Positions 255 to 33,674 of a stretch of 39,807 nucleotides of DNA are shown piece after piece; position 1 is the first letter of the stretch; each line of letters begins with the position of its first letter. The notes under the pieces are model-generated. The model searched no databases, was not told the origin of the DNA, and saw only the letters and a list, made by a program, of their open reading frames with translations. Source of the stretch: Rhodothermales bacterium (GTDB taxonomy: Bacteria > Bacteroidota > Rhodothermia > Rhodothermales > VXPQ01). The position numbers and the translations under genes are program-made. The stretch spans positions 1-39,807 of the forward strand of contig JBBDTI010000021.1 of assembly GCA_040904565.1 (NCBI GenBank). The letters run 5' to 3'.

Positions 255-330
255 TGGTGGGCCCGGCAGGATTCGAACCTGCGACCAATGGATTATGAGT
301 CCACTGCTCTAACCGCTGAGCTACGGGCCC
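255..330 (-). tRNA. tRNA with CAU anticodon, most likely tRNA-Ile2 (lysidine-modified)
   Basis: Reverse complement GGGCCCGTAGCTCAGCGGTTAGAGCAGTGGACTCATAATCCATTGGTCGCAGGTTCGAATCCTGCCGGGCCCACCA: 76 nt cloverleaf, GTTCGAATC T-loop, encoded CCA. The CTCATAA loop and ileX-like context favour Ile2 over Met. Confidence 0.93.
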
Positions 331-598
331 CTAGACGCGCCTCTCTGCACGTCCTGCCGTCCAAGATACGATGCGTCCGTAACACGTTCGTCCGAATCCG
401 ATGTTTCGAGGCCGGTGCTCGTCCGATGGGAGGTGCCGGCGGAGTCGACCGACATTAGCGGCCGAGATTGGCCGCCCTCCGTGCCCTTTTCGGTTCTGTG
501 TCTACGTGACCGCAGCGAACGGTACCATCAACCGATCCGTGCCGATTCGTTTGTATATTAGTGGCACACGGCCCCTCCATTCGCAGAGCGTCAACCCG

Positions 599-2293
599 AT
601 GAGGCGAGCATCATGTTGGTTGTCAGGTGCCATTCTTATCCAGGTGACGATACTTTTGCTGTTCTCCACCGGTCCCCCACGTGCGGGGGCCGACCGCGAC
701 GGGCTTACGCCGGCATCCATACGCCATGCGGCCGTAGCGTCACATATGTATACGAAAGCAGCCTGTGCAGGCTGCCATGACGACTCGGACGGGTTCGTCG
801 ACAGCCCGGACCACGTGCTCAACCGCAGATCCGAACTCGACCCGCCGGCGTGGGCCGATTCCGCTCGCGTTCAGTCGAAGTGCGGCACCTGCCATCTCGT
901 TCCCGATCCGTCGGACCTGCCGCCAGGTCGCTGGGACGATGCCCTCGTGAATTACATGAGTAAGGTGATGTACTACCTGCAGGAGGCCCCGGACTTTAGC
1001 GTCGCGCCCGTCGGCATGCCCTATGCTGAGTGGATGGCTCAGACCAGAGACGAGTGGATGGATGTACTGCATTATTATCTCGCCTTCAGCTCGTCCGACA
1101 CCTTACTTCCGCCGGACCCCGCCGTTTCGGGGCTCCGATTCGAGCACACGAGCATCGGCAGGCCTCCCGGCACCCGCGGGAGGCCGCAGGTCGGCAACGT
1201 GAACGTCGTGGATCTCGACGGGGACGGACGGAAGGATGTGGTTGTCGGCGATTTCGAGCGGCACCGCGTATCGCTCGTTCGGAGAGAGGAGAACGGCTGG
1301 AGGGAGCACGACCTGGCGTCCATCCCTTACCCGGGCCATACGGAGGTAGGAGACTTCGATGGAGATGGGGACAGCGACATCGTCGTGGCCAACGTAGGCA
1401 GCGCCGTGCCGACCGACAATCGTGTGGGCAGCGTCGTCCTCCTGACCCGAATGGAGGGGCTGAACTTTGAGTCCACCACGATCCTTGAGGGCGTCGGCCG
1501 GGTCGCGGACGTTAGGCCGGGTGATTTTGACCAGGACGGCGACGTCGACTTCGTGGTGGCCATCTTCGGATTCCTGAACGAAGGAGGTATCGGATGGCTC
1601 GAGCGGCAAGCCGACGGCTCGTATCGATATCACCCCTTGAGCGACAAGCAGGGCGGGGTCAATGTCCTTCCAACCGATCTGAACGGCGACGGTCGGCTCG
1701 ATTTTATCGCCCTGATCTCTCAACAGTATGAGGAGATCACCGCCTTCGTCAATCAGGGTGGAGGACGTTTCACCGAGCAGCTTCTGTTTAAGGCGGACTC
1801 GCCAACGTTCGGTTCGTCGGGCATTGAACTCGTGGATCTCGACCGCGACGGGGATGTGGATGTTCTCTTTACGAATGGAGACGGATTTGACCTGTCGAGT
1901 TCGATGATCCGACCGTATCATGGCGTGCAGTGGCTCGAGAACGAGGGGGAGTATCGCTTTCGCTACCACGACCTCCTCCGTCTGTACGGAGCCTATCGGG
2001 CGGTGCCGGGCGACCTGGATGGTGACGGCGATCTGGACATTATCGCGACCAGTCTACTCAACGACTGGAGCGATCCGGAGAGGATGAGCCTGATCTGGCT
2101 CGAAAACGACGGTCGCCAGCATTTCACGCCGCACGGTATAGGAAACACTCCCGCGTCGATCATTACCGCCGACGTGGCCGATCTCGACGGAGACGGCCGA
2201 CTCGACATTGTGACGGGGAGCATGCCGATGTCGGCGTCCGACCCCCGCCAGGGGCGCGTCACGGTGTTCTCCAATCTGGGCCCGCTCGATTAA
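599..2293 (+). CDS. Exported protein with two CxxCH heme-binding motifs fused to an FG-GAP/VCBS-repeat beta-propeller
   Basis: ORF 401..2293; probable start ATG 599 (MRRASCWLSGAILIQVTILLLF, signal-like). CAGCH and CGTCH motifs, then repeated DLDGDG/DFDGDG..D Ca-binding repeats. Confidence 0.8.
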   Translation: MRRASCWLSGAILIQVTILLLFSTGPPRAGADRDGLTPASIRHAAVASHMYTKAACAGCHDDSDGFVDSPDHVLNRRSELDPPAWADSARVQSKCGTCHLVPDPSDLPPGRWDDALVNYMSKVMYYLQEAPDFSVAPVGMPYAEWMAQTRDEWMDVLHYYLAFSSSDTLLPPDPAVSGLRFEHTSIGRPPGTRGRPQVGNVNVVDLDGDGRKDVVVGDFERHRVSLVRREENGWREHDLASIPYPGHTEVGDFDGDGDSDIVVANVGSAVPTDNRVGSVVLLTRMEGLNFESTTILEGVGRVADVRPGDFDQDGDVDFVVAIFGFLNEGGIGWLERQADGSYRYHPLSDKQGGVNVLPTDLNGDGRLDFIALISQQYEEITAFVNQGGGRFTEQLLFKADSPTFGSSGIELVDLDRDGDVDVLFTNGDGFDLSSSMIRPYHGVQWLENEGEYRFRYHDLLRLYGAYRAVPGDLDGDGDLDIIATSLLNDWSDPERMSLIWLENDGRQHFTPHGIGNTPASIITADVADLDGDGRLDIVTGSMPMSASDPRQGRVTVFSNLGPLD

Positions 2294-2389: not shown

Positions 2390-3706
2390 TCAGTTCATCG
2401 ACGGAAGTCCACGCAGGTATTCCCGCGCCGCCTCGTTGTTCGGATCGTGGCGGAGCGCCGCCTCCCACGCATCGCGCGCCGCGTCATCCTGGCCGATCCG
2501 CGCGAGGGCGATGCCGGCGTTGATCCAGGCCGGCACGAAGGTGTCATCCTGCTGGAGAATGGCATTGTACTCTTCCAGCGCACGCTCGACGTCGCGGTGC
2601 TTTAAAAAAAGATTCGCCACCCCGAAGCGCACCTCGACGTTCCCGGGATCGATGTGGAGCACCGTCTGGAAGGCCTGCATCGCCTCGGCATCGCGGCCTG
2701 CACGGTACAGGGCATATCCGTACGTCGCCCAGGCCGCGGGATCTTCAGGGTACAGCCGGGTCTTCGTCTCGTACTCGCGCAGGCCGTCCTCGATACGCTG
2801 CAGGCTGTCGGCGACCGCCAGGAATCGGGAAGCCTCGTCGAGCTGATCGAGATCGGCGAGGGCCCGTCCGAGTCCGTAGTAGCCCTCACTGTGATTGGGG
2901 TCCTGCTCGACGACCTGCCGAAACGTCGCAACGGCCTCTTCCACAGCGCCCGTTCGCAGGAGCATCGAGCCGATGAGGTATCGGTAGTCGGCATTGTCCG
3001 GCTCCTGTTCGAGTGCACGGCGGGCGTGGGGCAGCGCCGCCTCGGTATCGCCGTTTTGATCGAAGAGACGAGCCAGGCGGGCATGGGCCTCCGGGATGCT
3101 GTCCCCCTGGTCAATCGCGGCCTCGAATGCGAGGCGCGCGCTGTCGACGTAGCCGAGCTCCAGATACGCACGGCCCTTGTAGACCTTAACTCGCGGATCG
3201 TCGTGGGCCTCATTCTCCTGTTCGTAATATCCGACCGCGCGCTTGAACTGTCCGTTGCGGAAGGCATTGTTGCCCAGGTTCATGTAGGCACCCCGGTAGT
3301 TCGGGACGAGCGAGAGGACGCGCTGGTAGGCGTGCTGCGCGGCATCGGTGTCATGGAGTTCCGAGTAGATGCGACCCCGTAGAAAGGTGACGTCCGCCAG
3401 AAAGGTGGCATCACCCCGTGCGCCGCTCAGCCCGACATCTTCCCCAGCACCCTCGCCGCCGCTCTGCCCGGCATGCTGCTCGGCGCTATCGGCCTGTGCG
3501 AGCGCCGTGCCGATGTCGCCCGTCTGAAATGCTTTCTGGGCTTCTACCAGATATCCCGCGGCACGTGGATCGACACCCGTGCGGTCCGGACCCCGCTGCT
3601 CGTCGCGTTCGGTGTCGGACCCGCAGCCGAGGACGACGAGAAGAAGAGCCATGAGTGCAGCCGTGAGCCGAGAACGGCTCGAGGCCGGCACGAAAGAGAC
3701 GTGCAT
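2390..3706 (-). CDS. TPR-repeat lipoprotein
   Basis: 438 aa; lipobox-like LLVVLGC; many TPR-like helices (AYMNLGNNAF, YYGLGRALA, AWINAGIALA). Confidence 0.85.
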   Translation of the reverse strand: MHVSFVPASSRSRLTAALMALLLVVLGCGSDTERDEQRGPDRTGVDPRAAGYLVEAQKAFQTGDIGTALAQADSAEQHAGQSGGEGAGEDVGLSGARGDATFLADVTFLRGRIYSELHDTDAAQHAYQRVLSLVPNYRGAYMNLGNNAFRNGQFKRAVGYYEQENEAHDDPRVKVYKGRAYLELGYVDSARLAFEAAIDQGDSIPEAHARLARLFDQNGDTEAALPHARRALEQEPDNADYRYLIGSMLLRTGAVEEAVATFRQVVEQDPNHSEGYYGLGRALADLDQLDEASRFLAVADSLQRIEDGLREYETKTRLYPEDPAAWATYGYALYRAGRDAEAMQAFQTVLHIDPGNVEVRFGVANLFLKHRDVERALEEYNAILQQDDTFVPAWINAGIALARIGQDDAARDAWEAALRHDPNNEAAREYLRGLPSMN

Positions 3707-3718
3707 GGGGCGCCCCCT

Positions 3719-4750
3719 CTAGAATCCGACGTGCAGCCCTAAGCGATTGACGTTCCCCAGGTCGCCAAACTGCGAGTAAGCGTAGTCGGCACCAAAACTG
3801 AGACCGCTCACGTCGAGATTGAGGCCGGCGCCAAGATTCAGACCCTGCTCATCATTCGGAACCACATAGCCGGCCCGGAGAAAGAGTAGGTTCATGAACT
3901 GGTACTCACCGCCGACACGCAGCTGCTCGTCGAAGGAGCGCGGATGGCCCGCCTCCGCGCTGATCAACAGACCGTGGTTCCCCGTCATCGCCGGAGCCAC
4001 GACATCCAGCATGTCCATCGACGCACCGGCCGCGAGCAGCAGTGGTGTCTCGAAGGCTTCCTGCTCGTATGTCACCGTCGGCGAGAAGTTACGAGCGGAC
4101 ATGCCCACATTAAGGCTGCGAAAACCCGTCCGATAGAGCACGCCGAAGTCAAATACCGGCGTGCTCACGCTGTTTCCCTGGGTCGTCCCACTGGCGTCCA
4201 TGATGCTGTTCCCCAGGTCCTGGTGCACGTAGCGCACGCCGCCGCCGACCGAGAAACGATCGGAAAGAGATCGAGCGTAGCCCAGGCCAAGGGCGAGAGC
4301 CGACGGACTGAACGTTCCGATCCGTTCGTAGCCGAGGTCCGAACTCGATCGGATCGTGCCTTCGATCTCGCCGTAGTCGACCGACACGGCGGTAAATGCG
4401 AACGTTCCCAGGCGTCCGCCAGCCGGACTGTAACCGATGCTTGCACCGTTATAACTGATGTCCGCGATCCACTGAATGGTGCCGACGCTGAGGTCGCCGC
4501 CGTTCAGACTTGCCATTGCGGCCGGATTGTAGAACATGGCCATCGATGTACCCACGTCGGTAGCCACCATCGCATCGCCGAGAGCCGCGGCGCGCGGGCT
4601 CATCGAGACGCTCAGGAACTGCATCCCGGTCTGGGCCCGTTTGTCCCGTGGATGATCAAGCACGTCGGGCCGCTCATCCTGCGCAAGGGCCGTCTGCATC
4701 TGCGGCCCGACGACCAGTACGAGCACGAGCGTGAGAAGGAGACTTTTCAT
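3719..4750 (-). CDS. PorV/PorQ-family outer-membrane beta-barrel (T9SS shuttle-like)
   Basis: 343 aa; signal peptide; 'QFLSVSMSPRAAALGDA...MFYNPAA' signature; DYAYS..GDLG near the end; C-terminal Phe. Confidence 0.82.
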   Translation of the reverse strand: MKSLLLTLVLVLVVGPQMQTALAQDERPDVLDHPRDKRAQTGMQFLSVSMSPRAAALGDAMVATDVGTSMAMFYNPAAMASLNGGDLSVGTIQWIADISYNGASIGYSPAGGRLGTFAFTAVSVDYGEIEGTIRSSSDLGYERIGTFSPSALALGLGYARSLSDRFSVGGGVRYVHQDLGNSIMDASGTTQGNSVSTPVFDFGVLYRTGFRSLNVGMSARNFSPTVTYEQEAFETPLLLAAGASMDMLDVVAPAMTGNHGLLISAEAGHPRSFDEQLRVGGEYQFMNLLFLRAGYVVPNDEQGLNLGAGLNLDVSGLSFGADYAYSQFGDLGNVNRLGLHVGF

Positions 4751-4800
4751 GACGTAAACCTATTGTAAGTCCGTATTCGGCGACGAGTGCAACATTCCGC

Positions 4801-6981
4801 CTAGCGGATGACGACGAACTTCTTTATCACACGCTCGCCCGTCTCGTGGTTGTCGACAACGACGATGTAGACACCGCTGACGATAACCTGCTGCGAATCG
4901 GTGGTGAGGTTCCAGGCCTCGTCACCGGTCCCCGTCGTGTGCTCGATGGTTTTCACAAGGTCACCGCGCTCGGTAAAAATGCGAATCGTGCACCGTCCCG
5001 GAATATCCAGGAATGCCACCTTGTCTTCGCGATCAGGCCACCTGATATCGCCTGTCGCCGCAACGTTGAGCGGATTCGGAACGATGACAAAATCTGACGT
5101 GGCCTGACCCGGGCCACGAGCGGCGGCTGCCCCATCCCACGTCTGCGTCCAGTAGCGGTTGCTCTTTAACCGTACACCGTCGGGCGTGGCCGGCGAACCG
5201 GCGCCGGTCACATCGGAGGCGACGGCCTGGAGGTAGTAGAACTGCTCTACGCCGCGACCAGGGAGGGCGTCATTAAATTCACGCGCGTCGGGACCAAGGG
5301 CCGGAGTACCCGGACATCCCGCAATGCAGTCGTATCGGAAACCGTTCTCAACCGGACCCCAATAATACGTACGCGACCGGTAAAGCTCCCAACCCGCGAT
5401 CGGGCCGGCGTTCGGGTAGACATCCCACCCGATCTGGACTTCGTCTTCACCCGGGATTACCCGGAAGGATGAAGGCGGCATCGGTCCCTTGGGGATGCCG
5501 TACTGCGTCATACCGCTGCTCGCCCCGTAGGCCGCCAGCACGCGGTTGAAGGTCTGGAAGAGCGAATCCCTACCTGACTGTAGCCAGCCGTTTTTACTCA
5601 ATGTCTCACCGCGGTACGTGATGTTCCGTGTCGTGGCCAGATCCGGGGACATCTGGTCGCGCCGGTGGTTGGCGAGCTCCTTGAAGGCACTCCCAATGAG
5701 CTCGGCCTCGTGCTGATCGAGGCCGTCGACCGCCTCGGCAAGTACAATGCGCACGTCCTCTCCCGGTCCAAGCGAGTACGGTCCATAACTGAACATGGTC
5801 GAATAGCCGCCCGCCTTGCCGAGCTGCGGTGTGCCGTCATATGTGAGAAAATCGCCGTCCACGTCTACGATATCAGCGTGGTGCGGAAACATGTGGCCCA
5901 CGGCAATCACCTGATTGTAATCCTGTTCGCTGCGCTGAGAGTCGAAAGCGTCATTACCCGAAAGGAGGGGATGGTCCGAGTCAATGTGCCCCGTCGACGA
6001 GGGCTGTGTGGGGTCGTCCGACCCGTCGTCCGCACCGGCGTCGGCGTGCAGCGTGACCGTACCGATAAACTGCGGCACCGTTAGACGGCCGGTCGTGTCT
6101 CCCGGGGCCTCCGGGATCGACCGCCATCCGGAATTGTCGACCAGGCCAAGCTTTGGATAGCCCGCCTCGTCAAACGTGCCTGCATCCGAGTTCTGGGCGT
6201 TGCCGAGCCACGTGTACTGGGCACGGAAATCCACATCGTAGTCCTCCATCCCGTCTCCGACGACATCGTTCATTACGTTGGCGCCCCAACCGTCAGAGCC
6301 CCCCGGGTGGAACGCCCATTCGGCCATCTGGTAGCGCTTCTGGAAGTGGAGGTATACGCCCTCAAGCGTCTGCTCGACGTCCTGTTCCCCGTCGCCGTCC
6401 TGGTCGCCGGTGTTGGTCAGGACGAATTCCTGGATATGGTAGTTGTCGTTGTATGACTGATCGTAGGCGTATACCCGGCGTTCGTAGGTAAGGCCAATCG
6501 CACTGGCCGCCTTCGTATAGATCATGCGGTCGGCCGGTAGGTTCGGATCGACCTCGTCGTTGTCCGGGAAGTAGTCCAGGCTCTCGACGCGATCACCGGT
6601 CGGGAGCTGTACGATCACCTCGGGCGGCTCGAATCGGCTCACCGTCCGAAACTCCATCGGGAACAGCTCGCCGGCACCGCCGACGCGCGGACCGACGTGC
6701 GCCACCATATAGTCGAAGGTCTCGCCGGACATATGCTCGACGTTGCGCGCGCCCATCCACATCACGCCTACGCGCAAATTGTCCTGCTGCATGATGCGGG
6801 GCCACCTCAGACTTCTTCCACTGAACCAGCCCTCGCGCTCCCCGCCGATCTCGCTGTAAACGTTGACGAGGTTGCCGACGGCCAGCGGTTTGTTCTGGAA
6901 TTGAGCCAGCCCTTCGACCGGTGCAACGAGCCATAGGAGCACCGGGAGGAGGAACCCGAGTTTCAATCTTCTATCAGACAT
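4801..6981 (-). CDS. Secreted protein of unknown function with FN3-like region and T9SS type-A-like (FlgD-Ig) C-terminal domain
   Basis: 726 aa; signal peptide ending GLA-Q; C-terminus 'VPNPLNV...IRIFTERGDLVKTI...WNLTTDSQQVIVSGVYIVVV...KKFVVIR' resembles a T9SS sorting domain. Confidence 0.75.
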   Translation of the reverse strand: MSDRRLKLGFLLPVLLWLVAPVEGLAQFQNKPLAVGNLVNVYSEIGGEREGWFSGRSLRWPRIMQQDNLRVGVMWMGARNVEHMSGETFDYMVAHVGPRVGGAGELFPMEFRTVSRFEPPEVIVQLPTGDRVESLDYFPDNDEVDPNLPADRMIYTKAASAIGLTYERRVYAYDQSYNDNYHIQEFVLTNTGDQDGDGEQDVEQTLEGVYLHFQKRYQMAEWAFHPGGSDGWGANVMNDVVGDGMEDYDVDFRAQYTWLGNAQNSDAGTFDEAGYPKLGLVDNSGWRSIPEAPGDTTGRLTVPQFIGTVTLHADAGADDGSDDPTQPSSTGHIDSDHPLLSGNDAFDSQRSEQDYNQVIAVGHMFPHHADIVDVDGDFLTYDGTPQLGKAGGYSTMFSYGPYSLGPGEDVRIVLAEAVDGLDQHEAELIGSAFKELANHRRDQMSPDLATTRNITYRGETLSKNGWLQSGRDSLFQTFNRVLAAYGASSGMTQYGIPKGPMPPSSFRVIPGEDEVQIGWDVYPNAGPIAGWELYRSRTYYWGPVENGFRYDCIAGCPGTPALGPDAREFNDALPGRGVEQFYYLQAVASDVTGAGSPATPDGVRLKSNRYWTQTWDGAAAARGPGQATSDFVIVPNPLNVAATGDIRWPDREDKVAFLDIPGRCTIRIFTERGDLVKTIEHTTGTGDEAWNLTTDSQQVIVSGVYIVVVDNHETGERVIKKFVVIR

Positions 6982-7094
6982 TGTTCGACTAGAAGTTTGC
7001 TGTAATCAGTGTACCCTTTCACAGCGCCGCGCCTCCCTATGCGTCGGGAGTGACGCCCATGGGATCGCCGGTGATGCCCGGCTGCGCCGACGTT

Positions 7095-10094
7095 TTAGAG
7101 CGAAAGACGCATTCCGAAGAAGACCCTTCGAGGGAAGAGGTAGTGAAACGAGCTAATGTTCGGCGGATCGACGTAGTCCTTGCCAAGCGTCCCCGGTATG
7201 TCGTCGCCATAGAGGGGCTCCCCATCCTCGGACGGAACGTAGAACTGCTCCCAACCCTCGACCATCTCCTCGGGGAGCCGCAACGAGTTCATGTACTGAT
7301 TGAAGTCTTCCCCTGCTCCAAAGGAGGACGCATTAAAGTTCTTCAGGCTGAACACGTTGAAGATGTCGACGTAGGCGTTTACAGCCATCCCGTCGCCGAC
7401 CTCGAAGTTCTTGCTGATGCGTGCATCGACGTTGCGAAAGTGCCGCCAGTGCATGTTGCTCTGAATACCTGAGACCGGCTCGCGGCCCGTGTACGTGAAG
7501 TACTCACCGTGCTTCCATTCGCCGAGAAGGCTCAGCCGTAAGTCGCCGAGAAGGGCGAGGCCGCCGAGGTCGGGTCCGAAATCGTCCGGGGTAATGACCT
7601 CGATATTCGCACGGGCGAAAGGCCGAGCCAGCGGCTTGTTCTGGTAGTAGTCCGTCGTCCCACGTTCGTAACGGATCTGATCGATTCGATTTTCCCGGTA
7701 AGAGGGAAAGCCGAAGTTACCGCCTGAGTCGACCATATACGTGTAGTTGACGAAGCCGCGTATCCATTCGCCCCCACTCTTGAATAGGCTGATCTCGACG
7801 CCGCGCGTGTCGCTGTAGGAGTCCGGTACGTTCGTGTCGTAGTCGATTAATCCGTCACGGCTGATGAAGGCTACCTGCCGGGGCTGATTCTTCGAATCGC
7901 GGTAGTACCCGGCGATGCGGACCAGGAACTGGTCCAGAAAACTCTGCTCGTAACCCAGCTCGTACTGGATCGTGAGCATCATCGGATTGTTCGGGTTCGC
8001 TATCTGGAAAACGCCGTCATCCTGAAAACGGCGAGTGAGCCGATAGAGGTCTTGCGGCTTCGGTCGCTGGTAGGCATGCCCATAGTTGAGATAGAGCTTG
8101 CTCGCTACGGTAACAGGGAAGGAGACACCGACGCGCGGACTCAGGGCGATCTGCGGACTAACGCGCTCCTGGTCTATCAGCTCCTCGAACTGGTCGACGT
8201 TCTTGCCCAGAAAGGCATCGCTGTACGGATCGTCGTACACATACCAGTCCGTGCTCGGATCCATATAGTCGAGCCGGAGGCCGACGTTGGCGATCATCCC
8301 CTGGAATTCGAGCTTGTCCTGGAGGTAGGCGGCGGCGTAGATTTCCGTCTCATTCCACCTCCCGTATACGTCATTGGGATTGATCAGGGCATCGATGAAG
8401 CCAAAGTTAATGTCCTGCGGCCCTACGATAAGCTCGACGCCGCTCTCGACGAGGTTGGTGCGGTTAACCTGGCTCGTGATATCGAAGCGCGCAGAATACT
8501 GGGCGACGCTGGACGTGTCACGGAATTCGGCCCAGTGTCCGCCCATGCGCATGTTCTCGAAGGACGTGGCTCCCTGAAATTTCCAGCCGAGGGGCGCCTC
8601 GTCGAGGCAGAAGTTGCCAAAGCACTCGACCGGGGATTCGTCACGCTCTTCAGGCGGTACCGTCGAGTAGCGTTCGCCCAGGCGCTGTAGTCTCACCTCG
8701 TAGAACGTGCTCGGGTTGGGCGTGTGCGTGAACGAGGCACCGATCAGGTTCGTCTTGATGGTCGAGATCGATGTCGTCCCATTACTGAAGATCTGGTCTT
8801 CGGCCAGGCCGTAGCGAGCCGTCGAACCCGTACCGGTCTGGACGTTGCCGTCGCGCACGATGCGCGTGGTGCCGCCACGATCCTCGGTCGACGTTCCGGC
8901 TTGCTGACCCATCATCCCGTGAAGCACCAGCTTCATGTTCTGGGCGATGTTCGAGGTGAGCTTCAGACTACTATTTTCCTCTGAAAACCCGTCTCTCGAA
9001 CGTGGAATGATGTATTGGTCATTGGCCCGCCGGTACGTGGCGTAAAAGCGCAGGTCGCCCAGCGCGTCGCTAATACCCGGCACGGGGCCACCGACGCCGC
9101 CGTCGACCGTATAGTCCGGGGCGTCAGGCTCAATGTCTCGACGGTGACGAAACTCGAAGATATCCTGCAGCTGTTCGGGCGTCAGGTCATCATCCGGGTT
9201 GTCGTTATTGGCGAGGCTCTCTGCCATGTCGCTGTATCCGTCGAAGCGCGGATACTGATTCTGGGTAAAGTCGTCCCACTCATCGGTGCCCTCGAAGGCC
9301 ACCTCGGAATCCGTGTAGGGACGCATCCAGTACGAGTTCGGGTCGTTCGGATCGATGCCGAAATACTTCTTGGCGGGCGGGCTATACGACGCATTTATCG
9401 TGGCCTCGTATGAATCGCGCTGCCCCTCTTTCGTCACGACGTTGACGATCCCCGAGCGCATGTTGCCGTACTTGGCCGTGAAGCCGCCCGACTGAATCTG
9501 GATCTCCTCAATGGACGAATAGCTGATCCCGGTGTAGGGCGTGTTGTCGCGCCGGCTCGTCAAGTTCAGTCCGTCCATGAAGACGGCCGCCTGGTCGGCT
9601 CCGGCGCCACGGATGTTCATCCCCTGCACACCGGCCTGCAGGCCCACGACTCGATTGATGTCGTTCACGGGCAGGTTCTCGATTTGTGCAGAGGTTACGT
9701 CGACGCGGCTGGCGGAGAGGTCGGTCTTAACCACCTCCCGTTCGGCCGACACCACAACCTCATCGAGGCCTACCGCTTGTTCGGTGAGGTCGAAATTGAC
9801 CTCCGCAGTCAGGTCGATACTGACGCGCACGTCTTCGACCACCTGCGGCGTGAAGCCGATGAAAGACGCCCGCACGTCGTACGTACCGGGACGCACGTTG
9901 ATGATGGAATAGTATCCATCGGAGCCGGTCGAGGTACCCTGGGTCGTACCGTCGATGACGACGTTGACCCCCGGCAGTGGATCACCCGTGGCCGCGTCCG
10001 TAACCTGACCGGAGATCTTGCCCGACTGGGCGAATACCGGCGAACCTACCAAGCACAGCACGAGCAGGCTTAGAAGCTGTATCGGTGTTCTCAT
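7095..10094 (-). CDS. TonB-dependent receptor with N-terminal carboxypeptidase-regulatory-like domain
   Basis: ORF 7095..10160; probable start ATG 10094 (MRTPIQLLSLLVLCLVGSPVFAQ). GKISGQVTDAATGDPLPGVNV domain, TonB-box-like DEVVVSA, plug motif GGFTAKYG..SGIVNVVTK, terminal strand PRRVFFGMRLSL. Confidence 0.9.
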   Translation of the reverse strand: MRTPIQLLSLLVLCLVGSPVFAQSGKISGQVTDAATGDPLPGVNVVIDGTTQGTSTGSDGYYSIINVRPGTYDVRASFIGFTPQVVEDVRVSIDLTAEVNFDLTEQAVGLDEVVVSAEREVVKTDLSASRVDVTSAQIENLPVNDINRVVGLQAGVQGMNIRGAGADQAAVFMDGLNLTSRRDNTPYTGISYSSIEEIQIQSGGFTAKYGNMRSGIVNVVTKEGQRDSYEATINASYSPPAKKYFGIDPNDPNSYWMRPYTDSEVAFEGTDEWDDFTQNQYPRFDGYSDMAESLANNDNPDDDLTPEQLQDIFEFRHRRDIEPDAPDYTVDGGVGGPVPGISDALGDLRFYATYRRANDQYIIPRSRDGFSEENSSLKLTSNIAQNMKLVLHGMMGQQAGTSTEDRGGTTRIVRDGNVQTGTGSTARYGLAEDQIFSNGTTSISTIKTNLIGASFTHTPNPSTFYEVRLQRLGERYSTVPPEERDESPVECFGNFCLDEAPLGWKFQGATSFENMRMGGHWAEFRDTSSVAQYSARFDITSQVNRTNLVESGVELIVGPQDINFGFIDALINPNDVYGRWNETEIYAAAYLQDKLEFQGMIANVGLRLDYMDPSTDWYVYDDPYSDAFLGKNVDQFEELIDQERVSPQIALSPRVGVSFPVTVASKLYLNYGHAYQRPKPQDLYRLTRRFQDDGVFQIANPNNPMMLTIQYELGYEQSFLDQFLVRIAGYYRDSKNQPRQVAFISRDGLIDYDTNVPDSYSDTRGVEISLFKSGGEWIRGFVNYTYMVDSGGNFGFPSYRENRIDQIRYERGTTDYYQNKPLARPFARANIEVITPDDFGPDLGGLALLGDLRLSLLGEWKHGEYFTYTGREPVSGIQSNMHWRHFRNVDARISKNFEVGDGMAVNAYVDIFNVFSLKNFNASSFGAGEDFNQYMNSLRLPEEMVEGWEQFYVPSEDGEPLYGDDIPGTLGKDYVDPPNISSFHYLFPRRVFFGMRLSL

Positions 10095-10717: not shown

Positions 10718-12430
10718 TCAGTCGACGTAATGGATGCTGTCGGATCCTTCGACGAGGCGCACGTGGCGATTGCCGGAAACGTGCGTGAAGTGGTCGATCC
10801 TGCCGCTTGGCCACTCAACCGCGAGACTGTCGACCGAGGATGCTGATCCGAGACCGAATGTGACCGGGAGCTCCGACGCCGAAAGATAGGTGGAGCCGGA
10901 GCGAACGCGGCGCTCCATCCAGCGGCCTTCTGACACGGCGACGATGCGCGCCGAAAGGCCGCTGCGGTTGCTTCGCGTTCCTTCCAGAGTCACGCGGAGG
11001 AAGCCCGTCGACGGCTCTAGATCCCTGCCCGAATCGTTGAGTTCGTTGCGCCACAGGTGCACCCGGCCCCCGTTCTCCGTTACGAGAACGTCCAGGTCGC
11101 CGTCGCCGTCAATGTCCGCATGCGCGGAACCCCGGGCCACGATGCGCTCGGAGAGGACACCGCCGATCTTGGGCGCGGCGTCGACGAACGAACCATCACC
11201 TTGATTCACGAAGAGGTGCGGCGCTTCTGCATATCGTACGGATTCGTCGACGGTTTCGATGTCCGGTTGAACGTGCCCGTTGGCGGCGAACAGATCCAGA
11301 TCGCCGTCTAGATCGACATCGAACAGGAACAGGCCGAACGTGAGCGTCATGAGACTCGGACGACCGATCTTCGAGACGAAGGCGCGGTCTTCAAACAGAC
11401 CGACACGCGCGTGCCGGTAAACGCCGATCGTTTCTTTTGAAAAATTGCCCACGAATAGGGATACTTCTCCGGTGCTGTCTACGACGCCCGCGTCTATGCC
11501 CATACCGGCCCGGGCCGCACCGTTCTCGTCGTACGCTATCCCGGCGATCGTACCGCGCTCGGTGAAGGTACCATCACCGTTGTTTTCGTACAGCAGGTCC
11601 GGCTCCGTGTCGCTGGCAACCGCGAGATCGGGCGCCCCGTCGCGATTGTAATCGAGTTCGACCACACCGAGGGCCTTGCCCGGGGCCGGCACGAACCCGG
11701 CGTCTTCCGTCGCGTCGCGGAATGTGCCGTCCCCGTTGTTCACGTAGAATCGGCCAGGTACGCCATCGTAGGCCTCCGGCGTACAATAGTCCTTTCGGAT
11801 GCCGTCGAGCGAGCAGAAGATGTCGGTCTCCGGAGACCAGCGCACGTAGTTTCCGACGTAGAAATCGACGGCGCCGTCGCCGTTTGCATCAAAGAACAAG
11901 GCGGACGAGCTCCAGACCGGATCGCCGGCCACTCCGGCATCGACCGGTGCGAAGATCCCGCTGTTGTTGCGAAACAAGATGTTCTCGCTCAGGGTCGTGA
12001 CGTAGAAATCCTGATCGCCGTCATTGTCGTAATCGGCTACGGCGAAGCCCAGCGTATAGGCGTCGACCTGGCCGAGCCCGACCTCCGCGGTGACATCCTT
12101 GAACGTGCCTCCGCCGTCATTGCGATACAGTGACAGCGTCGGACGATCCGTCGCCGACCACGAGCCGCCTCCGGCAAGGAGGATATCCGGCCTGCCGTCC
12201 CCGTTGTAATCGATGAAGGCGCACCCCGAACCCATTGATTCGGGAAACCACTTGTCTCCGACGGCGCCTGTTTCGTGCCGGAATCCACCCAGCCCGGCCT
12301 CCTCCGTAATGTCGGAAAAGCGTGGAGTGGCAGATGTCGGCCGGGAGTCATCCGGCGACGCCGGGGGCGCCGAGGAGTCCGGTGACCCGCAGGCCGCGAC
12401 GAGCATCGTGACCAGCAGCAGGCCACCCAT
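10718..12430 (-). CDS. CRTAC1-family FG-GAP repeat lipoprotein with C-terminal ASPIC/UnbV domain
   Basis: ORF 10718..12616; likely start near 12430 (MGGLLLVTMLVAAC lipobox). ESMGSG..DYNGDG repeats; C-terminal 'GSTYLSASELPVTFGLG...VEWPSG' is typical of ASPIC/UnbV. Confidence 0.85.
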   Translation of the reverse strand: MGGLLLVTMLVAACGSPDSSAPPASPDDSRPTSATPRFSDITEEAGLGGFRHETGAVGDKWFPESMGSGCAFIDYNGDGRPDILLAGGGSWSATDRPTLSLYRNDGGGTFKDVTAEVGLGQVDAYTLGFAVADYDNDGDQDFYVTTLSENILFRNNSGIFAPVDAGVAGDPVWSSSALFFDANGDGAVDFYVGNYVRWSPETDIFCSLDGIRKDYCTPEAYDGVPGRFYVNNGDGTFRDATEDAGFVPAPGKALGVVELDYNRDGAPDLAVASDTEPDLLYENNGDGTFTERGTIAGIAYDENGAARAGMGIDAGVVDSTGEVSLFVGNFSKETIGVYRHARVGLFEDRAFVSKIGRPSLMTLTFGLFLFDVDLDGDLDLFAANGHVQPDIETVDESVRYAEAPHLFVNQGDGSFVDAAPKIGGVLSERIVARGSAHADIDGDGDLDVLVTENGGRVHLWRNELNDSGRDLEPSTGFLRVTLEGTRSNRSGLSARIVAVSEGRWMERRVRSGSTYLSASELPVTFGLGSASSVDSLAVEWPSGRIDHFTHVSGNRHVRLVEGSDSIHYVD

Positions 12431-12709
12431 CGCCAGAGTGCTTACGACACAATGCAAGCCGGCGCACTCGTGTATATCCCCACAGGCGCCAGCAGATCGC
12501 CTTTTACCCTGGCGACGATCGAAAGATCGAATCGCCGCCCCTTGCGGGTTACGCAACGTCAGGGGAGACGGAACCGGACTTCGGCAGCCTCCTGACGAAA
12601 AAAGGACGTGGGCCATGCCGCCGTCGAACGTTCGATTACGGGTTGAGCGATATCCTCTTCGCAGCCGAATTCACGATGCCCGAGATACCGCACGCTACGT
12701 ACCTAATAC

Positions 12710-13453
12710 CTACCGCATCTCCGAATACACGGTCGGACGCATGGTGACGGACTCGATGTTGGCGACGAGCGGGCCGTCGCGGTGCGATTCCTCGGCCACC
12801 TGCTGCCATTCCGGATCGGCGATGAATTCCCGCCACGATTCGTACTGTGCGTGCACGCCGGGGAAGGCGAGGATGTAGATCAGCCGCTCCTCATCCTGAT
12901 CGATCCAGTAGGCCACGTTCTGCATCCCGTGCTTCTCGAAGATCCGCAGCGTGTGGTCGCGGAATCGGGTGAGCAAATCCTCGAACTTGCCCTCGTGCGG
13001 CGTATAGGTACGCAGTTCGAAGACGCGCTCGTACTCCAGCGAGGCGGGGCCGATGGTGGGCGAAAAATCGGCCGCATCCATCATGACCGACTCGACGTTC
13101 GTTACGATATCCCCCTGCGCCTCGGTAATCGCCTTGGCGTGCAGCCAGTCCGGGTCGCGGAAGAAGCGTGCCCAGGATGAATCCCGCGCGACGCAGTCCG
13201 GATACGACAGCACGTAGATGAACTGATTGTCCGGATTCTCGATCGGAATCCAGTATCCGAGTCCGTCCATCCCGTACTCGAAAAATACGGGGCGGGTGTA
13301 CTTGGCGAACCGCCGGTTCAGATCGTCGAGCCGGCCGTCCGGCGCCGTGTAGGTGCGCAGCTCGTAGCATTTGTCGTCGGCCTGCGCCTTCGCGTCCGGA
13401 GCCGCCAATCCGGCGACGAAGGCAACAATGCACAGCAGATAAACGTGTCTCAT
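12710..13453 (-). CDS. Secreted double-NIPSNAP domain protein
   Basis: Signal peptide; two repeats of (Y/F)ELRTYT...G...L..RF...F...GM...YW....W..F..DP.W. Confidence 0.88.
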   Translation of the reverse strand: MRHVYLLCIVAFVAGLAAPDAKAQADDKCYELRTYTAPDGRLDDLNRRFAKYTRPVFFEYGMDGLGYWIPIENPDNQFIYVLSYPDCVARDSSWARFFRDPDWLHAKAITEAQGDIVTNVESVMMDAADFSPTIGPASLEYERVFELRTYTPHEGKFEDLLTRFRDHTLRIFEKHGMQNVAYWIDQDEERLIYILAFPGVHAQYESWREFIADPEWQQVAEESHRDGPLVANIESVTMRPTVYSEMR

Positions 13454-13585
13454 TGTATCGTGGTGTGAGTCAGAAAAGTCGTGGAATGTGGGCCGCCCTC
13501 GCGCGCGCCGGCTTCCCGACGCATTCGGGCTCCTCCCAGTATAGGACGAAACGTATCGCTTTGCAGACCATTACGCCGTCTTTTC

Positions 13586-14548
13586 ATGCACGATCTTCGC
13601 GCCGCCTCCGTCCAGTTTCAGCACGCCCCCGGCGGGATCGGTGCTAACCTGGCCCGCGTGACCGCCTTCGTCAAAGAGGCTTCCGGCCGCGGCGTCGACC
13701 TCATCGCGTTTCCGGAAATGTGCCTCACGGGCTACTGGCACGTGCGCCGTCTCGGCCGTGAGGAGGTCGACGCGCTGGCGGAGCCGGTGCCGGGCGGAAC
13801 CTGCACCGAGGCGCTGCTCGAGCTCGCCGACGAGCACGAGATGACGATCGGGGCCGGACTCATCGAACGGGACGCCGACGGCACCTTATATAATAGCTAC
13901 GTCGTGGCGATGCCCGACGGCCGCTTCGCCTGTCACCGCAAGCTGCACGCCTTCATCAGCGAGCACATCACCTCGGGCGACAGCTTCACGGTGTTCGATC
14001 TGCCGAACGGCACGAAGGCCGGGATCCTCACGTGCTACGACAACAATCTCATCGAGAATGCGCGCATCACGGCGCTCATGGGCGCCGAGGTGCTCATCGC
14101 GCCGCATCAGACGGGTGGATGTCACTCCCGCAGCCCCCGCGCCATGGGACGCATCGACCCCGCCCTCTGGCACGACCGCGCGGAGAACCCGGACGCCCTC
14201 CGGCGCGAGTTCCTGGGTCCCAAGGGCCGCGAGTGGATCCTCCGCTGGCTCCCCTCCCGCGCGCACGACAACGGGATGTACCTGCTCTTCGCCAACGGAG
14301 TGGGACTCGACGACGACGAAGTGCGCACGGGCAACGCGATGATCCTGGATCCCTACGGTCAGATCGTAGCCGAGTCGCGCTCCATCGCCGACGACATGGT
14401 CGTGGCCGACCTGAAGGCCGACGACCTCCCGATGTCGTCCGGCCGCCGCTGGCTGAAGGCCCGCCGACCGGAGCTCTACGCCCCCCTCACGGAGTCGACG
14501 GGCAGCGAAACCGCCATCCGAACCGTCCGCTTCGGCCAGGACGAATGA
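13586..14548 (+). CDS. Nitrilase/carbon-nitrogen hydrolase family protein
   Basis: ORF 13481..14548; probable start ATG 13586 (MHDLRAASVQF). Catalytic triad motifs FPEM, HRKLH, LTCYD. Confidence 0.9.
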   Translation: MHDLRAASVQFQHAPGGIGANLARVTAFVKEASGRGVDLIAFPEMCLTGYWHVRRLGREEVDALAEPVPGGTCTEALLELADEHEMTIGAGLIERDADGTLYNSYVVAMPDGRFACHRKLHAFISEHITSGDSFTVFDLPNGTKAGILTCYDNNLIENARITALMGAEVLIAPHQTGGCHSRSPRAMGRIDPALWHDRAENPDALRREFLGPKGREWILRWLPSRAHDNGMYLLFANGVGLDDDEVRTGNAMILDPYGQIVAESRSIADDMVVADLKADDLPMSSGRRWLKARRPELYAPLTESTGSETAIRTVRFGQDE

Positions 14549-14665
14549 TGCGGCGGCGTGCCGCATAGACGGCGGCGCGCTGCGGCCTCGGCGGTATCAT
14601 ATGGTGGTAGACTGCCGCGGTTGGCTGCGGCGGTGGGCTGCGGCGCATTACCGTCCCGCAACGCC

Positions 14666-15598
14666 TTATCCCCCGAACGCATCGCGCAGCAGGGCCAGAC
14701 TCGTCGGGACGGCCGTGTCCGGCGATTCCTTGCCCTCGAATTCGAGCGAGACGTAGCCCCGGAAGCCGGCGTCCTGCATGATCCCCGCGATGCGATCGTA
14801 GTCCAGATCCAGCGTATACCAGGTGCCGCCGCCGTAGTACGTCTTCGCCTGTACGAGGACGGCGTGGGGGGCCAGCATGGCGAGCTCGTCGTAGGGATCC
14901 TCCAGAAAGTTTCCCGTATCGAGGGTGACCTGCAGCCAGGGCGAGTCGATGGCCTCCACGATCCGGAGGACGCCCTCCGGCGTCCGGCCGAGGCCCCAGT
15001 GATTCTCGAGCCCCAGCACGACGCCCCTCTCGGCCGCGTGCTCGACGCACTCGCCGATGGCCTCGATCACCCACTCGAACCCGTCCTCGTCCGTGTACCC
15101 TTCCAGCGGCGGCTCGATGCCCCGGTTGGCCATCAGGGCGTCGAAGGACTCGCTCGTTCCCCATCGCCCCGTGTTGATGCGCATCGTGGGGATCCCCATC
15201 GCCGCGGCCAGATCGATCTGATGCTTCGTGTCCTCCACGTTCTCCTGCCGCTCGGCGGCGTCGGGCGAGACGAAGCCCTGGTGGGTCGAGAAGCCCATCA
15301 GGTCCACCCCCAGCTCGATCGCCCGCCGCTTGAGCAGCTGCAGGTGGGCGTTCTCCTCGGATCCCATCTGGATGTGCAGGATCTCGACGCCGTCGAAGCC
15401 CATGTCGGCGGCCTGTTCGATGCACCACTCGATGGGATAGTTCTCCCTCGGACCGTCGAAGCGCCAGAAGGAATAGGTCGAGACACCGATCCGGTTGCCA
15501 GCGCGTCTCTGGGACTCCAGCAATGGGTGTAGCGAAGGTGCCGCAGCCAGTCCCGCGCCAGCGGCGGCTGACTGCTTAAAAAAGGTGCGCCGGTCCAT
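14666..15598 (-). CDS. Tat-exported xylose-isomerase-like TIM barrel (sugar-phosphate isomerase/epimerase family)
   Basis: Probable start 15598 MDRRTFFKQSAAAGAG (twin-arginine signal); GFDGVE, LGLENH, LDTGNF, SLEFEG motifs. Confidence 0.88.
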   Translation of the reverse strand: MDRRTFFKQSAAAGAGLAAAPSLHPLLESQRRAGNRIGVSTYSFWRFDGPRENYPIEWCIEQAADMGFDGVEILHIQMGSEENAHLQLLKRRAIELGVDLMGFSTHQGFVSPDAAERQENVEDTKHQIDLAAAMGIPTMRINTGRWGTSESFDALMANRGIEPPLEGYTDEDGFEWVIEAIGECVEHAAERGVVLGLENHWGLGRTPEGVLRIVEAIDSPWLQVTLDTGNFLEDPYDELAMLAPHAVLVQAKTYYGGGTWYTLDLDYDRIAGIMQDAGFRGYVSLEFEGKESPDTAVPTSLALLRDAFGG

Positions 15599-15835
15599 CT
15601 TACAGCTCGTTTGCTCCATGAGATCTTTTCGTGGCGGAACCGCACGCATCGTACCGCACCGGTGCGCCGGCTACCGCCGCACGCGCCAATGTAACGAGGC
15701 GGGCGGACAACAGCGAGGCGCGGGGGCCGCCAACCTCGCGTGTATCCTCGAAGCGCTTCCGCCGCAAAGGCTCTGTGAATTTCGGCCCATTACGACCCGA
15801 ACAACGCAACACAACATAAATTTTTTAGTCTGATG

Positions 15836-15865
15836 TTGACAAACGTCCAAAAAGCCATGTAAATT
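15836..15865 (+). promoter_or_regulatory. Sigma70-type promoter candidate for lrp-glnA
   Basis: TTGACA-N18-TAAATT in an AT-rich intergenic region upstream of the Lrp gene. Confidence 0.5.
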
Positions 15866-15894
15866 CTGGCGACTTGGATAAATTAATTAAGTTA

Positions 15895-15909
15895 CCTAAA
15901 ATACTTAGG
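15895..15909. promoter_or_regulatory. Palindromic operator candidate CCTAA-N5-TTAGG
   Basis: Perfect 5-5-5 inverted repeat between the promoter candidate and the Lrp start codon. Confidence 0.4.
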
Positions 15910-15929
15910 CACCAGTACCCGTCCCGTTT

Positions 15930-16433
15930 ATGGACCGAATTGATGAGATCGACACGACCATTCTGCAGCTGCTGCAAGAGAACGGTCGGATGAAGCGGAA
16001 CGCGATTGCGGAAATCGTTGATCTCTCCGTGCCCTCCGTCAGCGAGCGGATGCGCAAGCTCGAAGAACGCGGCGTCATCACGGGGTACCACGCCGTCGTC
16101 GATCCCAAGCGGCTTCACTTCGACATCACGTCGTTCATTCGTGTTACGGTCGACGGCTCCGAGCATTTCGACCCGTTCGTAGCGGAAGCGATGAGTTTTC
16201 CGGAGGTGCTCGAAGTGCATTCCATAACCGGCGAAGGCTCCCACATTCTGAAGATCCGTACGAAGAACACGACCTCGCTCGAACGCCTGCTCTCGAAGGT
16301 GCAGGCCCTGCCGGGCGTCCACGGCACGTCCACCAGCATCGTCCTGAGCACGTTCAAGGAAACGCAGGCGGTCCAGCCGTCTCCGATGGAGCTGGCCGAA
16401 TACGACAGAGAAAAGGAGCCCGTACCGAGTTGA
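15930..16433 (+). CDS. Lrp/AsnC family transcriptional regulator
   Basis: MDRIDEIDTTILQLLQENGR...LSVPSVSERMRKLEERGVITGY HTH and EVHSITGE RAM domain. Confidence 0.95.
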   Translation: MDRIDEIDTTILQLLQENGRMKRNAIAEIVDLSVPSVSERMRKLEERGVITGYHAVVDPKRLHFDITSFIRVTVDGSEHFDPFVAEAMSFPEVLEVHSITGEGSHILKIRTKNTTSLERLLSKVQALPGVHGTSTSIVLSTFKETQAVQPSPMELAEYDREKEPVPS

Positions 16434-16460
16434 TCCTTTCCCACCCAATCCGACGACGTC

Positions 16461-17873: not shown

Positions 17874-18039
17874 GGCGACTGTCAGCACGACCTCACCCGG
17901 GACGGCGCACCTAAATACTGCTACCACCTCAAGTACGGCAGTGTAGTACCTCCCCGATGTGTCGCACGGTACAACCACGGCCGGACGACGCGCTCATTCC
18001 TTACGTACAGTAAACAGACACAACTGCACATAGACGACC

Positions 18040-23767: not shown

Positions 23768-23822
23768 GGTGCGTCGAAGCGAAGCGGGGGGCAATGGAGG
23801 TAGGAGATTGTGGGCCGTAATA

Positions 23823-29349: not shown

Positions 29350-29365
29350 CTAATCCTCTGACCTG

Positions 29366-32580: not shown

Positions 32581-32633
32581 AGGTCGTCGTAGTTCATGTC
32601 TGGCTGCATTCGCAGCACGTATCACGCCCGATC

Positions 32634-33645: not shown

Positions 33646-33674
33646 GTTTTGAGGAGGCAATCTTCAGGGGGAGT

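Follow-up and report, generated by a model that had tools for sequence, protein, structure and literature searches.

A conserved gene triad of a TonB-dependent receptor, a protein with a T9SS-type tail and a PorV/PorQ-family barrel in a Rhodothermales bacterium, and its possible role in nutrient capture

The model for polymer uptake by Bacteroidota is the SusC/SusD pair, in which SusD is an alpha-helical, TPR-like lipoprotein. A 39,807-nucleotide stretch of a Rhodothermales genome (GenBank assembly GCA_040904565.1, contig JBBDTI010000021.1; hereafter the window) encodes a large TonB-dependent receptor (TBDR) that is followed by genes for a protein that we call MID, for a beta-barrel and for a TPR lipoprotein. 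This locus raises the question of how such a receptor is provided with substrate when no SusD is encoded beside it. An initial annotation, made from the letters alone, had read the four genes as an uptake and display cassette in which MID is exported by the T9SS (type IX secretion system) and held on a PorV paralog of its own. Our analysis confirms the gene cassette as observed and partly supports the interpretation as a whole. We place the probability at roughly 0.55 that the core of this cassette is a three-gene outer-membrane uptake module, in which T9SS-delivered MID is held on its own barrel beside the TBDR.

Conservation and duplication of the triad

Our scan of one genome per species yielded 499 encoded MID relatives, and we examined the best 80 loci by searching their open reading frames (ORFs) with the window proteins (phmmer, E ≤ 1e-5). 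A locus was counted as having room for the TBDR if it extended at least 1 kb on that side of MID, and for the barrel if it extended at least 0.7 kb on the other. Among these best 80 of 499, a TBDR gene lay directly upstream of MID in 75 of the 77 loci with room, a PorV-family barrel gene lay directly downstream in 72 of 75, and both flanked MID in 70 of 72. As the same order recurs in 70 of 72 loci, the arrangement is far beyond chance. The initial annotation had pointed to similar triads in other FCB-group genomes, and the order is indeed kept across phyla, the loci spanning Rhodothermales, Balneolales, Ignavibacteriota (Ignavibacteriales, Melioribacter), KSB1, Latescibacterota, Calditrichota and Marinimicrobia (Neomarinimicrobiota). 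Spacing within the triad is tight: measured from stop to start, the median distance is ~46 nt between the TBDR and MID genes and ~0 nt between the MID and barrel genes. In an even sample of 201 genomes from the window's GTDB phylum, the MID profile matched 62 at E ≤ 1e-20, a count that includes the window's own genome and some matches confined to the FN3 domain or the tail. Within the same order, the profile matched each of the 11 other genomes, and three large families had no positive genome (0/39, 0/12 and 0/13).

Within the genome analyzed here we found three triads: the one in the window and two others, on contigs C11 and C16 (C16: TBDR of 1102 aa, partner of 1116 aa, barrel of 345 aa). 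The closest paralogs of the window TBDR are the receptors of the other two triads (722.6 and 192.5 bits; no further TBDR above 87), and the MID and barrel genes likewise have paralogs in those triads (866 and 56 bits for MID; 448 and 112 bits for the barrel). As the closest paralogs of each component are the components of the other triads, the module has been duplicated as a whole.

The same genome allows the triad to be compared with SusC/SusD directly. Its two true SusD genes belong to classical SusC/SusD pairs on contigs C1 and C58, so the label "SusD-less" that had been given to the locus holds for the cassette and not for the genome. On C1 the gene order is SusC-like TBDR, SusD, a 231-aa ORF, an FG-GAP/UnbV_ASPIC protein and a TPR lipoprotein; on C11 it is TBDR, MID paralog, barrel, FG-GAP/UnbV_ASPIC protein and TPR lipoprotein; and in the window the FG-GAP/UnbV_ASPIC gene precedes the TBDR, MID, barrel and TPR lipoprotein genes. 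These accessories are paralogs of one another. The window FG-GAP/UnbV protein matches those of the C11 triad locus (644 bits) and of the position after SusD on C1 (597 bits), with a further paralog on C58, and the window TPR protein matches those of the C11 triad locus (236 bits) and of C1, where it follows SusC/SusD and FG-GAP/UnbV (160 bits). The FG-GAP proteins around the C58 SusC/SusD pair number four, and three of these have an UnbV_ASPIC domain. As paralogous accessories follow either SusC/SusD or the triad in equivalent loci, MID and the barrel occupy the slot of SusD. This positional equivalence is the strongest new argument to come from our analysis.

The genes that surround the core differ among relatives. 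A quick IQ-TREE phylogeny of the 80 MID proteins, midpoint-rooted for drawing only, contained two fully supported clades of 64 and 16 rows. In the larger clade the genes that typically come after the barrel encode an IPT/TIG protein (~415 aa), a Por_Secre_tail protein (~450 aa) and a GHL10 (PF02638) hydrolase that ends in a C-terminal domain (CTD) of T9SS type. The smaller clade holds the window, the C11 paralog and their nearest relatives, with TPR and/or FG-GAP/UnbV genes, plus a Latescibacterota group. In the 68 loci with at least 1.3 kb beyond the barrel, the following genes were of the TIG/CTD/GHL10 kind in 53, TPR/FG-GAP in 6, DUF6785/phosphotriesterase (PTE) in 4 and other in 5; where a TIG-class locus offered 6.5 kb or more, GHL10 lay downstream in 27 of 41 cases. 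Since the post-barrel gene sets differ by clade, we view the core as constant and the periphery as modular, as in polysaccharide utilization loci (PULs). Several loci (L018, L022, L039, L044, L058 and others, ~13000-18000) combine the triad with the TIG/CTD/GHL10 trio in a six-gene, PUL-like arrangement. The Latescibacterota triads L085-L087 and L092 (~11100-17800) continue with DUF6785/DUF6784 and a phosphotriesterase-family protein, and with a sulfatase in L086.

The fourth gene of the cassette belongs to this periphery. The initial annotation had taken all four genes as one unit; the TBDR-MID-barrel triad stands as such a unit, and the TPR lipoprotein falls outside it, being confined to one clade. 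A TPR match after the barrel was seen only in the closest relatives (FG-GAP/UnbV follows the barrel in L032, L036 and L050), and the TPR lipoprotein is a clade-specific accessory rather than part of the conserved core. We also considered it as a PorW/SprE-like part of the T9SS and rejected this assignment, given a generic NCBIfam match of 41.7 bits against a cut-off of 250 and a paralog that follows a SusC/SusD pair.

By eye, both accessories of C1 and of C11, the TPR protein and the FG-GAP/UnbV protein, have a lipobox Cys followed by an acidic or serine-rich stretch, as does the window TPR protein, and the window FG-GAP/UnbV protein has no lipobox at its uncertain start. We take this motif of the accessories to resemble the Bacteroidota surface-export signal. 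FG-GAP/UnbV_ASPIC (CRTAC1-like) proteins lie beside SusC/SusD at G000:C1 (L096:3892-12704) and G000:C58 (L097:38-18511), and they may be an uncharacterised class of PUL accessory; we found no paper linking UnbV/ASPIC with SusD in word searches of open-access full text (PMC and bioRxiv).

The receptor, MID and the barrel

The receptor has the plug and barrel of a generic TBDR. Pfam identifies CarbopepD_reg_2 (85.8 bits) and Plug (33.2 bits, cut-off 23.9), and the barrel is recognized through partial NCBIfam matches at residues 609-810 and through homology, by way of the C16 paralog, to TBDRs that carry PF00593. The protein falls short of the SusC/RagA model TIGR04056, with 77.5 bits against 368.25 and a match limited to model positions 2-281 of 981, at the N-terminus. 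Its 1021-aa ORF likely starts at an internal ATG, at position 10094, which gives a 999-aa protein with a normal signal peptide.

MID lacks any Pfam family at E ≤ 0.1. Its relatives (more than 505 database matches) are all unnamed and without Pfam domains, and the clusters nearest to it in a protein atlas are its own unnamed family, with one cluster in which 17% of members carry Por_Secre_tail. It is not a SusD/RagB protein (PF07980, PF14322), as it has no Pfam match, a type-I-like signal peptide and a mainly-beta model. To describe its fold we rely on an AlphaFold2 model (pLDDT 83.9, pTM 0.83; alignment of 42 homologs) and on a VIA search with this model. In that search, residues 25-541 resembled the N-terminal domains of glycoside hydrolases and phosphorylases of families GH94, GH15, GH65 and GH116 (Z 18.5-17), which points to a galactose-mutarotase-like supersandwich. 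The best match was 8rf9_A (Z 18.5, rmsd 3.4, 259 aligned residues), followed by 9ju0, 5nz7, 7w2t, 2cqs, 8ic6, 1lf6 and 1ulv. The fold claim rests on this search and not on Foldseek, which against the PDB returned whole-model TM-scores of at most 0.25, with pointers only to GH94-type N-domains, FN3 and PorZ. A PDB sequence-profile search with the MID alignment gave FN3-type matches only (4 at E ≤ 1). No (alpha/alpha)6 catalytic domain follows the supersandwich in MID or in the 1116-aa partner on C16.

The C-terminal tail of MID was taken by the initial annotation to be a T9SS CTD. It is homologous to type-A CTDs as judged by profile alignment: against a canonical CTD profile, built from 13 Por_Secre_tail-positive tails encoded by neighboring genes, hhalign gave 96.2% over 76 columns (E 2.1e-9), and MID carries two insertions. 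The PorZ C-terminus is the best NCBIfam match of all three triad tails (E 1.7e-7 for MID). It falls below the curated type-A thresholds, however, and forms a distinct subtype. In profile searches of the own genome (9088 stop-to-stop ORFs of at least 150 aa), the MID-tail profile had 3 matches only, namely MID, its C11 paralog and the 1116-aa C16 protein, and all three are encoded between a TBDR and a PorV-family barrel. The canonical CTD profile matched 23 other ORFs, including PorU, and 0 of the 3 triad partners. On these alignments we classify the MID tail as a divergent type-A CTD whose subtype is private to triads in this genome.

The C16 partner belongs to a larger family, with more than 1359 database matches. 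Its tail aligns with that of MID at 98.2% (hhalign E 4.9e-14, 34% identity, 97 columns), free of the gaps seen against canonical tails, and its model (pLDDT 81.7) begins with a supersandwich that has the same top PDB chains as MID (Z 19.2-16.8). When the two family alignments were compared by hhalign, only the tails aligned; outside the tail, the FN3 domain and one supersandwich segment there was no significant similarity, so the kinship of the two bodies rests on fold lists and segmental HMM matches. As the tail subtype, the supersandwich and the top PDB matches are common to both, MID is a short form (~720 aa) of this giant partner.

The barrel had been assigned to PorV rather than FadL. The PorV/PorQ family model NF033709 scores 188.6 bits over its entire length (positions 1-326 of 326; cut-off 90), and the FadL/OmpP1/TodX model PF03349 (Toluene_X) scores 26.8 bits, below its cut-off of 29.7 and over the N-terminal part only (E 2.3e-6). 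By these matches the barrel is kin of the FadL superfamily but not a member of the FadL family. It reaches neither the PorV equivalog NF033710 (85.2 bits as a protein and 67.9 in six-frame translation; cut-off 250) nor the PorQ equivalog NF033711 (84.6 bits; cut-off 220), and no PorP/SprF model is among its 6 NCBIfam matches at E ≤ 0.1. The genome holds seven barrels of the PorV/PorQ family: those of the three triads, one each on C72 and C13, and two in tandem.

A structural model further links MID to this barrel, as the initial annotation had anticipated. Residues 24-343 of the barrel and 618-726 of MID were predicted to form a complex with a score of 0.91 in 3 of 3 runs, and the best of 3 controls scored 0.00; each partner had a separate alignment, and as controls served unrelated proteins rather than other barrels or other CTDs. 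The partners had pLDDT values of at least 87, and contacts agreed to at least 83% between runs. The score mark is reached in 116 of 157 cases among solved complexes and in 2 of 215 among mismatched pairs, rates that are only rough with custom alignments. The predicted interface includes the family-invariant MID residues V634-P635-N636-P637 and K721 and the family-invariant barrel residues Q40, F45, G127, T132, G140 and P149. A CTD seated on the extracellular loops of PorV is a solved arrangement, as described in excerpts of PMC10994853, and the score shows likeness of the model to that complex and is not proof for the MID-barrel pair. With this qualification, the barrel is probably the private carrier and anchor of the MID tail.

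Coordinates of the cassette and other window features are collected below. The intergenic gaps of 113, 50 and 12 bp between the four co-oriented cassette genes match the ORF coordinates exactly, and all four proteins begin with a hydrophobic N-terminal leader when read by eye, in agreement with the export signals proposed for them. The leaders of MID, the barrel and the TBDR end in A-Q, in MID with the invariant Gln27 directly after the predicted cut, and in the TPR protein an acidic stretch follows the lipobox. Exported proteins of Bacteroidota typically begin with a Gln that has cyclised to pyroglutamate. Neither SusD nor a glycoside hydrolase or regulator was found by Pfam among the four genes and their immediate flanks, as had been stated. 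Strictly defined, a PUL consists of adjacent susC-like and susD-like genes; with no susD in the window, the locus is not a PUL in this sense. The single promoter predicted for the cassette was not borne out, as 4 sigma-70-like sites compare with 2.9 ± 1.5 in shuffled sequence, which is not above chance; the promoter scan lists a lone 9-of-12 site at 10403-10375 (-). The promoter and terminator scan found no sites beyond the shuffled expectation, so it gives no backing for one promoter or for internal terminators. An Rfam scan of the whole window found the tRNA gene only, and no RNA element inside the cassette. The upstream FG-GAP/UnbV_ASPIC gene lies ~560-620 bp from the TBDR gene on the same strand; the second FG-GAP gene is convergent with the cassette, and its membership is uncertain.

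Features of the window, numbered from its first nucleotide; the cassette lies entirely on the minus strand
Feature	Nucleotides	Strand	Description and basis
TBDR	7095..10094 (ORF runs to 10160)	-	~999 aa from ATG 10094; signal peptide, CarboxypepD_reg-like N-domain, plug, divergent barrel
MID (726-aa partner)	4801..6981	-	Signal peptide, supersandwich, FN3, variant T9SS C-terminal domain
MID signal peptide			Residues 1-26; invariant Gln27 after predicted cut
MID supersandwich	5497-6900	-	Residues ~28-495; galactose-mutarotase-like, by model
MID FN3	5212-5484	-	Residues ~500-590; PDB profile matches
MID variant T9SS C-terminal domain	4804-5106	-	Residues 626-726; profile alignment
PorV/PorQ-family barrel	3719..4750	-	343 aa; NF033709
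TPR lipoprotein	2390..3706	-	438 aa; TPR Pfam families; lipobox Cys28
FG-GAP/UnbV_ASPIC protein	10718..12616	-	~632 aa (start uncertain); FG-GAP_3 127 bits, UnbV_ASPIC 54 bits
Second FG-GAP repeat protein	401..2293	+	630 aa; FG-GAP_3 147.8 bits (Pfam)
tRNA gene	258-330	-	Rfam 78.4 bits; spurious ORFs overlap at window start
CBM9/DUF5916 protein	21554-23794	-	746 aa
Carotenoid genes	27808-35204		Two amine-oxidase/phytoene-desaturase-type flavoproteins; 885-aa fusion of carotenoid-synthesis (lycopene-cyclase-type) domain and phytoene synthase

A proposed mechanism and its alternatives

From these data we propose the following mechanism for the module. MID would be exported by Sec, fold in the periplasm and cross the outer membrane through the T9SS translocon, its variant type-A CTD leading. 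The tail would then stay uncleaved and, instead of being transferred to lipopolysaccharide, would bind the extracellular loops of the co-encoded barrel, like the PorZ tail on PorQ, making the barrel the permanent surface anchor of MID next to the TBDR. From there the supersandwich and FN3 body would catch substrate for the receptor, the role that SusD or a surface glycan-binding protein plays for SusC, and the TBDR would import what is caught, which is most likely a glycan. In this scheme, swappable and clade-specific accessories would be provided by the TPR lipoprotein and the FG-GAP/UnbV proteins (one upstream, one on the opposite strand). Tail retention has precedents: excerpts of the review PMC10202324 state that the PorZ tail is retained, on PorQ, that PorU on PorV is likewise uncleaved, and that cognate PorV-like barrels have been suggested to shield tails from cleavage.

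The genome encodes the translocon and sortase that this route would use (SprA 1951 bits, PorU 986 bits, and on C72 a true PorQ with 277 bits against a cut-off of 220), in line with the T9SS core expected by the initial annotation. For porKLMN and for the separate housekeeping porV that it also expected, the models searched (GldK, GldM and PorV) gave no match over cut-off in the genome. The PorZ model likewise gave no full-length match over its cut-off, and what it did match at the edge of a contig is an N-terminal fragment (C12:5-313).

Two further sets of barrels stand apart from the triads. In C16 (L012:9048-12703), the two tandem PorV/PorQ-family barrels come after a 565-aa protein that has an FlgD_ig/PorZ-like tail and partly matches F510_1955 glycosylhydrolase; there is no TBDR, and the genes may represent another cargo-carrier set. 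In C13 (L013:5751-10532), the gene for a PorV2-like barrel (286 bits against 325) stands immediately behind pstC-pstA-pstB-phoU, a position that suggests that its subfamily has a phosphate-linked role.

Several observations weigh against the proposed module, and they bear on three alternatives as well. The first group concerns secretion and retention. The MID tail scores 15.5 bits against the CTD model TIGR04183, below the cut-off of 23, and has no Por_Secre_tail (PF18962) match at E ≤ 0.1; the complex model may reflect recall, because a PorV-CTD complex has already been solved. None of the 7 barrels in the genome passes as canonical PorV (best 68-85 bits against 250), and nothing in the genome exceeds the cut-offs for GldK (TIGR03525), GldM (TIGR03517) or GldM_1st (PF12081), for which the control genomes also gave none. 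Three orphan MID homologs (L066:154-2274, L091:10001-12085 and L095:9959-12031) keep the tail and have no TBDR or barrel beside them despite room, their neighbors being unrelated genes. The L095 orphan is flanked by a gene for an AI-2E transporter and by recX/recA, and its genome encodes a full triad as well (L058); such orphans may use a barrel encoded elsewhere.

In one alternative, the barrel would be a FadL-type channel or a general T9SS carrier, MID an ordinary released cargo, and the linkage to the TBDR a matter of co-regulation only, with no physical complex. The kinship of the barrel with the FadL superfamily, the orphans, and the position of the window barrel as the genome's best match to the PorV model in an assembly where canonical PorV was not found all fit this view. 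We nevertheless regard it as improbable, as each triad has its own barrel, the divergence of which parallels that of its partner, the tail subtype occurs only on proteins with a barrel encoded next door, and the gene order is kept across phyla. Furthermore, the 23 canonical-CTD ORFs would need a general carrier in any case, and canonical porV may simply be unassembled, because PorU ends at base 43 of contig C82 (the assembly is 94.9% complete).

A second group of observations concerns whether MID binds its substrate or acts on it. The supersandwich fold is shared with mutarotases, lyases and YidC, and the fold alone does not show function. The invariant or nearly invariant residues of the MID family include R99, D179, N180, H182, E185, R216, W232, H368 and D472, and a catalytic site could be made up of the conserved polar set, of which D179-N180-x-H182 and E185 are nearly invariant examples. 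MID might be an enzyme, such as a new supersandwich-type polysaccharide lyase, hydrolase or epimerase, that is secreted by the T9SS, tethered by the barrel and trims polymer to a size fit for import by the TBDR. The many conserved polar and aromatic residues agree with this, as do the catalytic supersandwiches in the MID fold list (galactose mutarotases with Z 12-13.5, PL26 and other lyases, and GH174 fucanase) and the window, where no other degradative enzyme is encoded. The best fold matches (Z 17-18.5), however, are N-domains of multi-domain glycoside hydrolases and phosphorylases, and supersandwich N-domains of this kind are not known to be catalytic. In addition, 53 of 68 loci encode a separate TIG protein, a CTD protein and often GHL10 after the barrel, so an enzyme is supplied elsewhere, and comparison with the paralogous C1 locus puts MID and the barrel in the slot of SusD, which is a binder. 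We therefore consider an enzymatic MID unlikely, though a serious alternative to a binding MID.

The third point concerns the substrate. That the substrate would be a glycan rests on the MID fold and on the neighbors of MID relatives, because the window has no glycoside hydrolase. The flanks of some relatives encode Amidase_3, a GlcN-6-P isomerase/PIG-L fusion, a sulfatase and a sodium:solute symporter. In Cwp19 the GHL10 domain is reported to be a peptidoglycan lytic transglycosylase (PMC6016235), and in DogH it is reported to act on starch (PMC9967864). These substrate hints are weak, and the window's own clade offers FG-GAP/UnbV and TPR accessories only. With no catabolic genes in the cassette, and with TPR and FG-GAP/UnbV being typical protein-interaction and adhesion-type folds, the module could instead be a device for envelope structure or export, such as a surface-layer or adhesion unit on a TBDR-like platform. 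A non-transport role for a related fold is known from the Bacteroidota BAM complex, where FadL-fold BamG holds extracellular BamH (PMC12578637). The TBDR, however, retains its plug domain, relatives' loci encode GHL10 hydrolases, a sulfatase, a sodium:solute symporter and sugar-amine enzymes, and the same accessories follow true SusC/SusD pairs. We judge an envelope device highly improbable and favor the uptake module.

Relation to known systems

TBDRs, T9SS cargo proteins and PorV/PorQ carriers are known kinds of protein, and what appears undescribed is their fixed union as an uptake module. We found no description of a TBDR-CTD protein-PorV-like triad in word searches of the open-access full text of PMC and bioRxiv, and a term search in a 2026 review of glycoside transporters (PMC13543919) gave 0 mentions of PorV or T9SS. 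New here are the short-form partner in Rhodothermales, its link to the giant partners, the restricted tail subtype and the exchange with SusD within a single genome. The conserved core is widespread and appears to do the job of the SusC/SusD nutrient-capture pair.

A broader hypothesis, which we put forward as tentative, is that in much of the FCB (Fibrobacterota, Chlorobiota, Bacteroidota) group outside Bacteroidia the standard lid or catcher of a TBDR is a T9SS-delivered protein, its uncleaved tail seated in a private PorV/PorQ barrel docked beside the receptor, with MID and the giants as two branches of one superfamily that is interchangeable with SusD. If so, the genome analyzed here would show the swap directly, with identical accessory genes wired to either solution. 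It would also explain substrate capture in SusD-poor FCB lineages (Rhodothermales, Balneolales, Ignavibacteriota, KSB1, Latescibacterota and Marinimicrobia), give names to two large "hypothetical" families and improve PUL prediction, which is now keyed on susD. To our knowledge, secretion, attachment and gliding are the only settings in which T9SS carrier barrels are known, and with the module the T9SS would gain a third class of cognate carrier-cargo pair. As the same accessories stand behind SusC/SusD or a triad, a natural swap, the idea is directly testable.

Among the described systems, PorQ-PorZ and PorV-PorU of Porphyromonas gingivalis likewise combine a PorV/PorQ barrel with a CTD protein, which is there kept uncleaved (excerpts of PMC10202324). 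The resemblance extends to the MID tail, whose best NCBIfam match is PorZ, and to the window barrel, which scores equally with PorV and PorQ. The window barrel differs in falling below both equivalogs, and the genome has a separate, true PorQ on C72. As the MID-barrel pair is wired to a TBDR and exists in three diverged copies, we do not count it among the parts of the secretion machine. Type-B CTD cargo with PorP/SprF carriers, such as SprB-SprF of Flavobacterium johnsoniae, shares the arrangement of a cargo gene beside the gene for a private carrier barrel, which takes the cargo off the translocon and then anchors it (excerpts of PMC10994853 and PMC10202324). Here, in contrast, the tail is homologous to type A, the barrel is of the PorV/PorQ family, and the proposed role is nutrient import and not gliding. 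The giant-partner triads, such as that on C16, are alike in gene order, tail subtype and N-terminal supersandwich, and differ in a partner that is far longer (1116 aa on C16) than the ~720-aa MID.

The closest functional parallel that we propose is SusC/SusD (RagA/RagB). Both systems have a large TBDR with a CarboxypepD_reg-like N-domain, the gene for the surface partner immediately after it, and the same FG-GAP/UnbV and TPR accessories, as seen when C1 is compared with C11 and the window. They differ in the receptor, which in the triad falls below the SusC/RagA model, and in the partner: MID is mainly beta, carries no SusD Pfam domain and, where SusD has a lipobox, begins with a cleavable signal peptide and ends in a T9SS-type tail, so that a third gene, for the barrel, would be needed for its retention at the surface.

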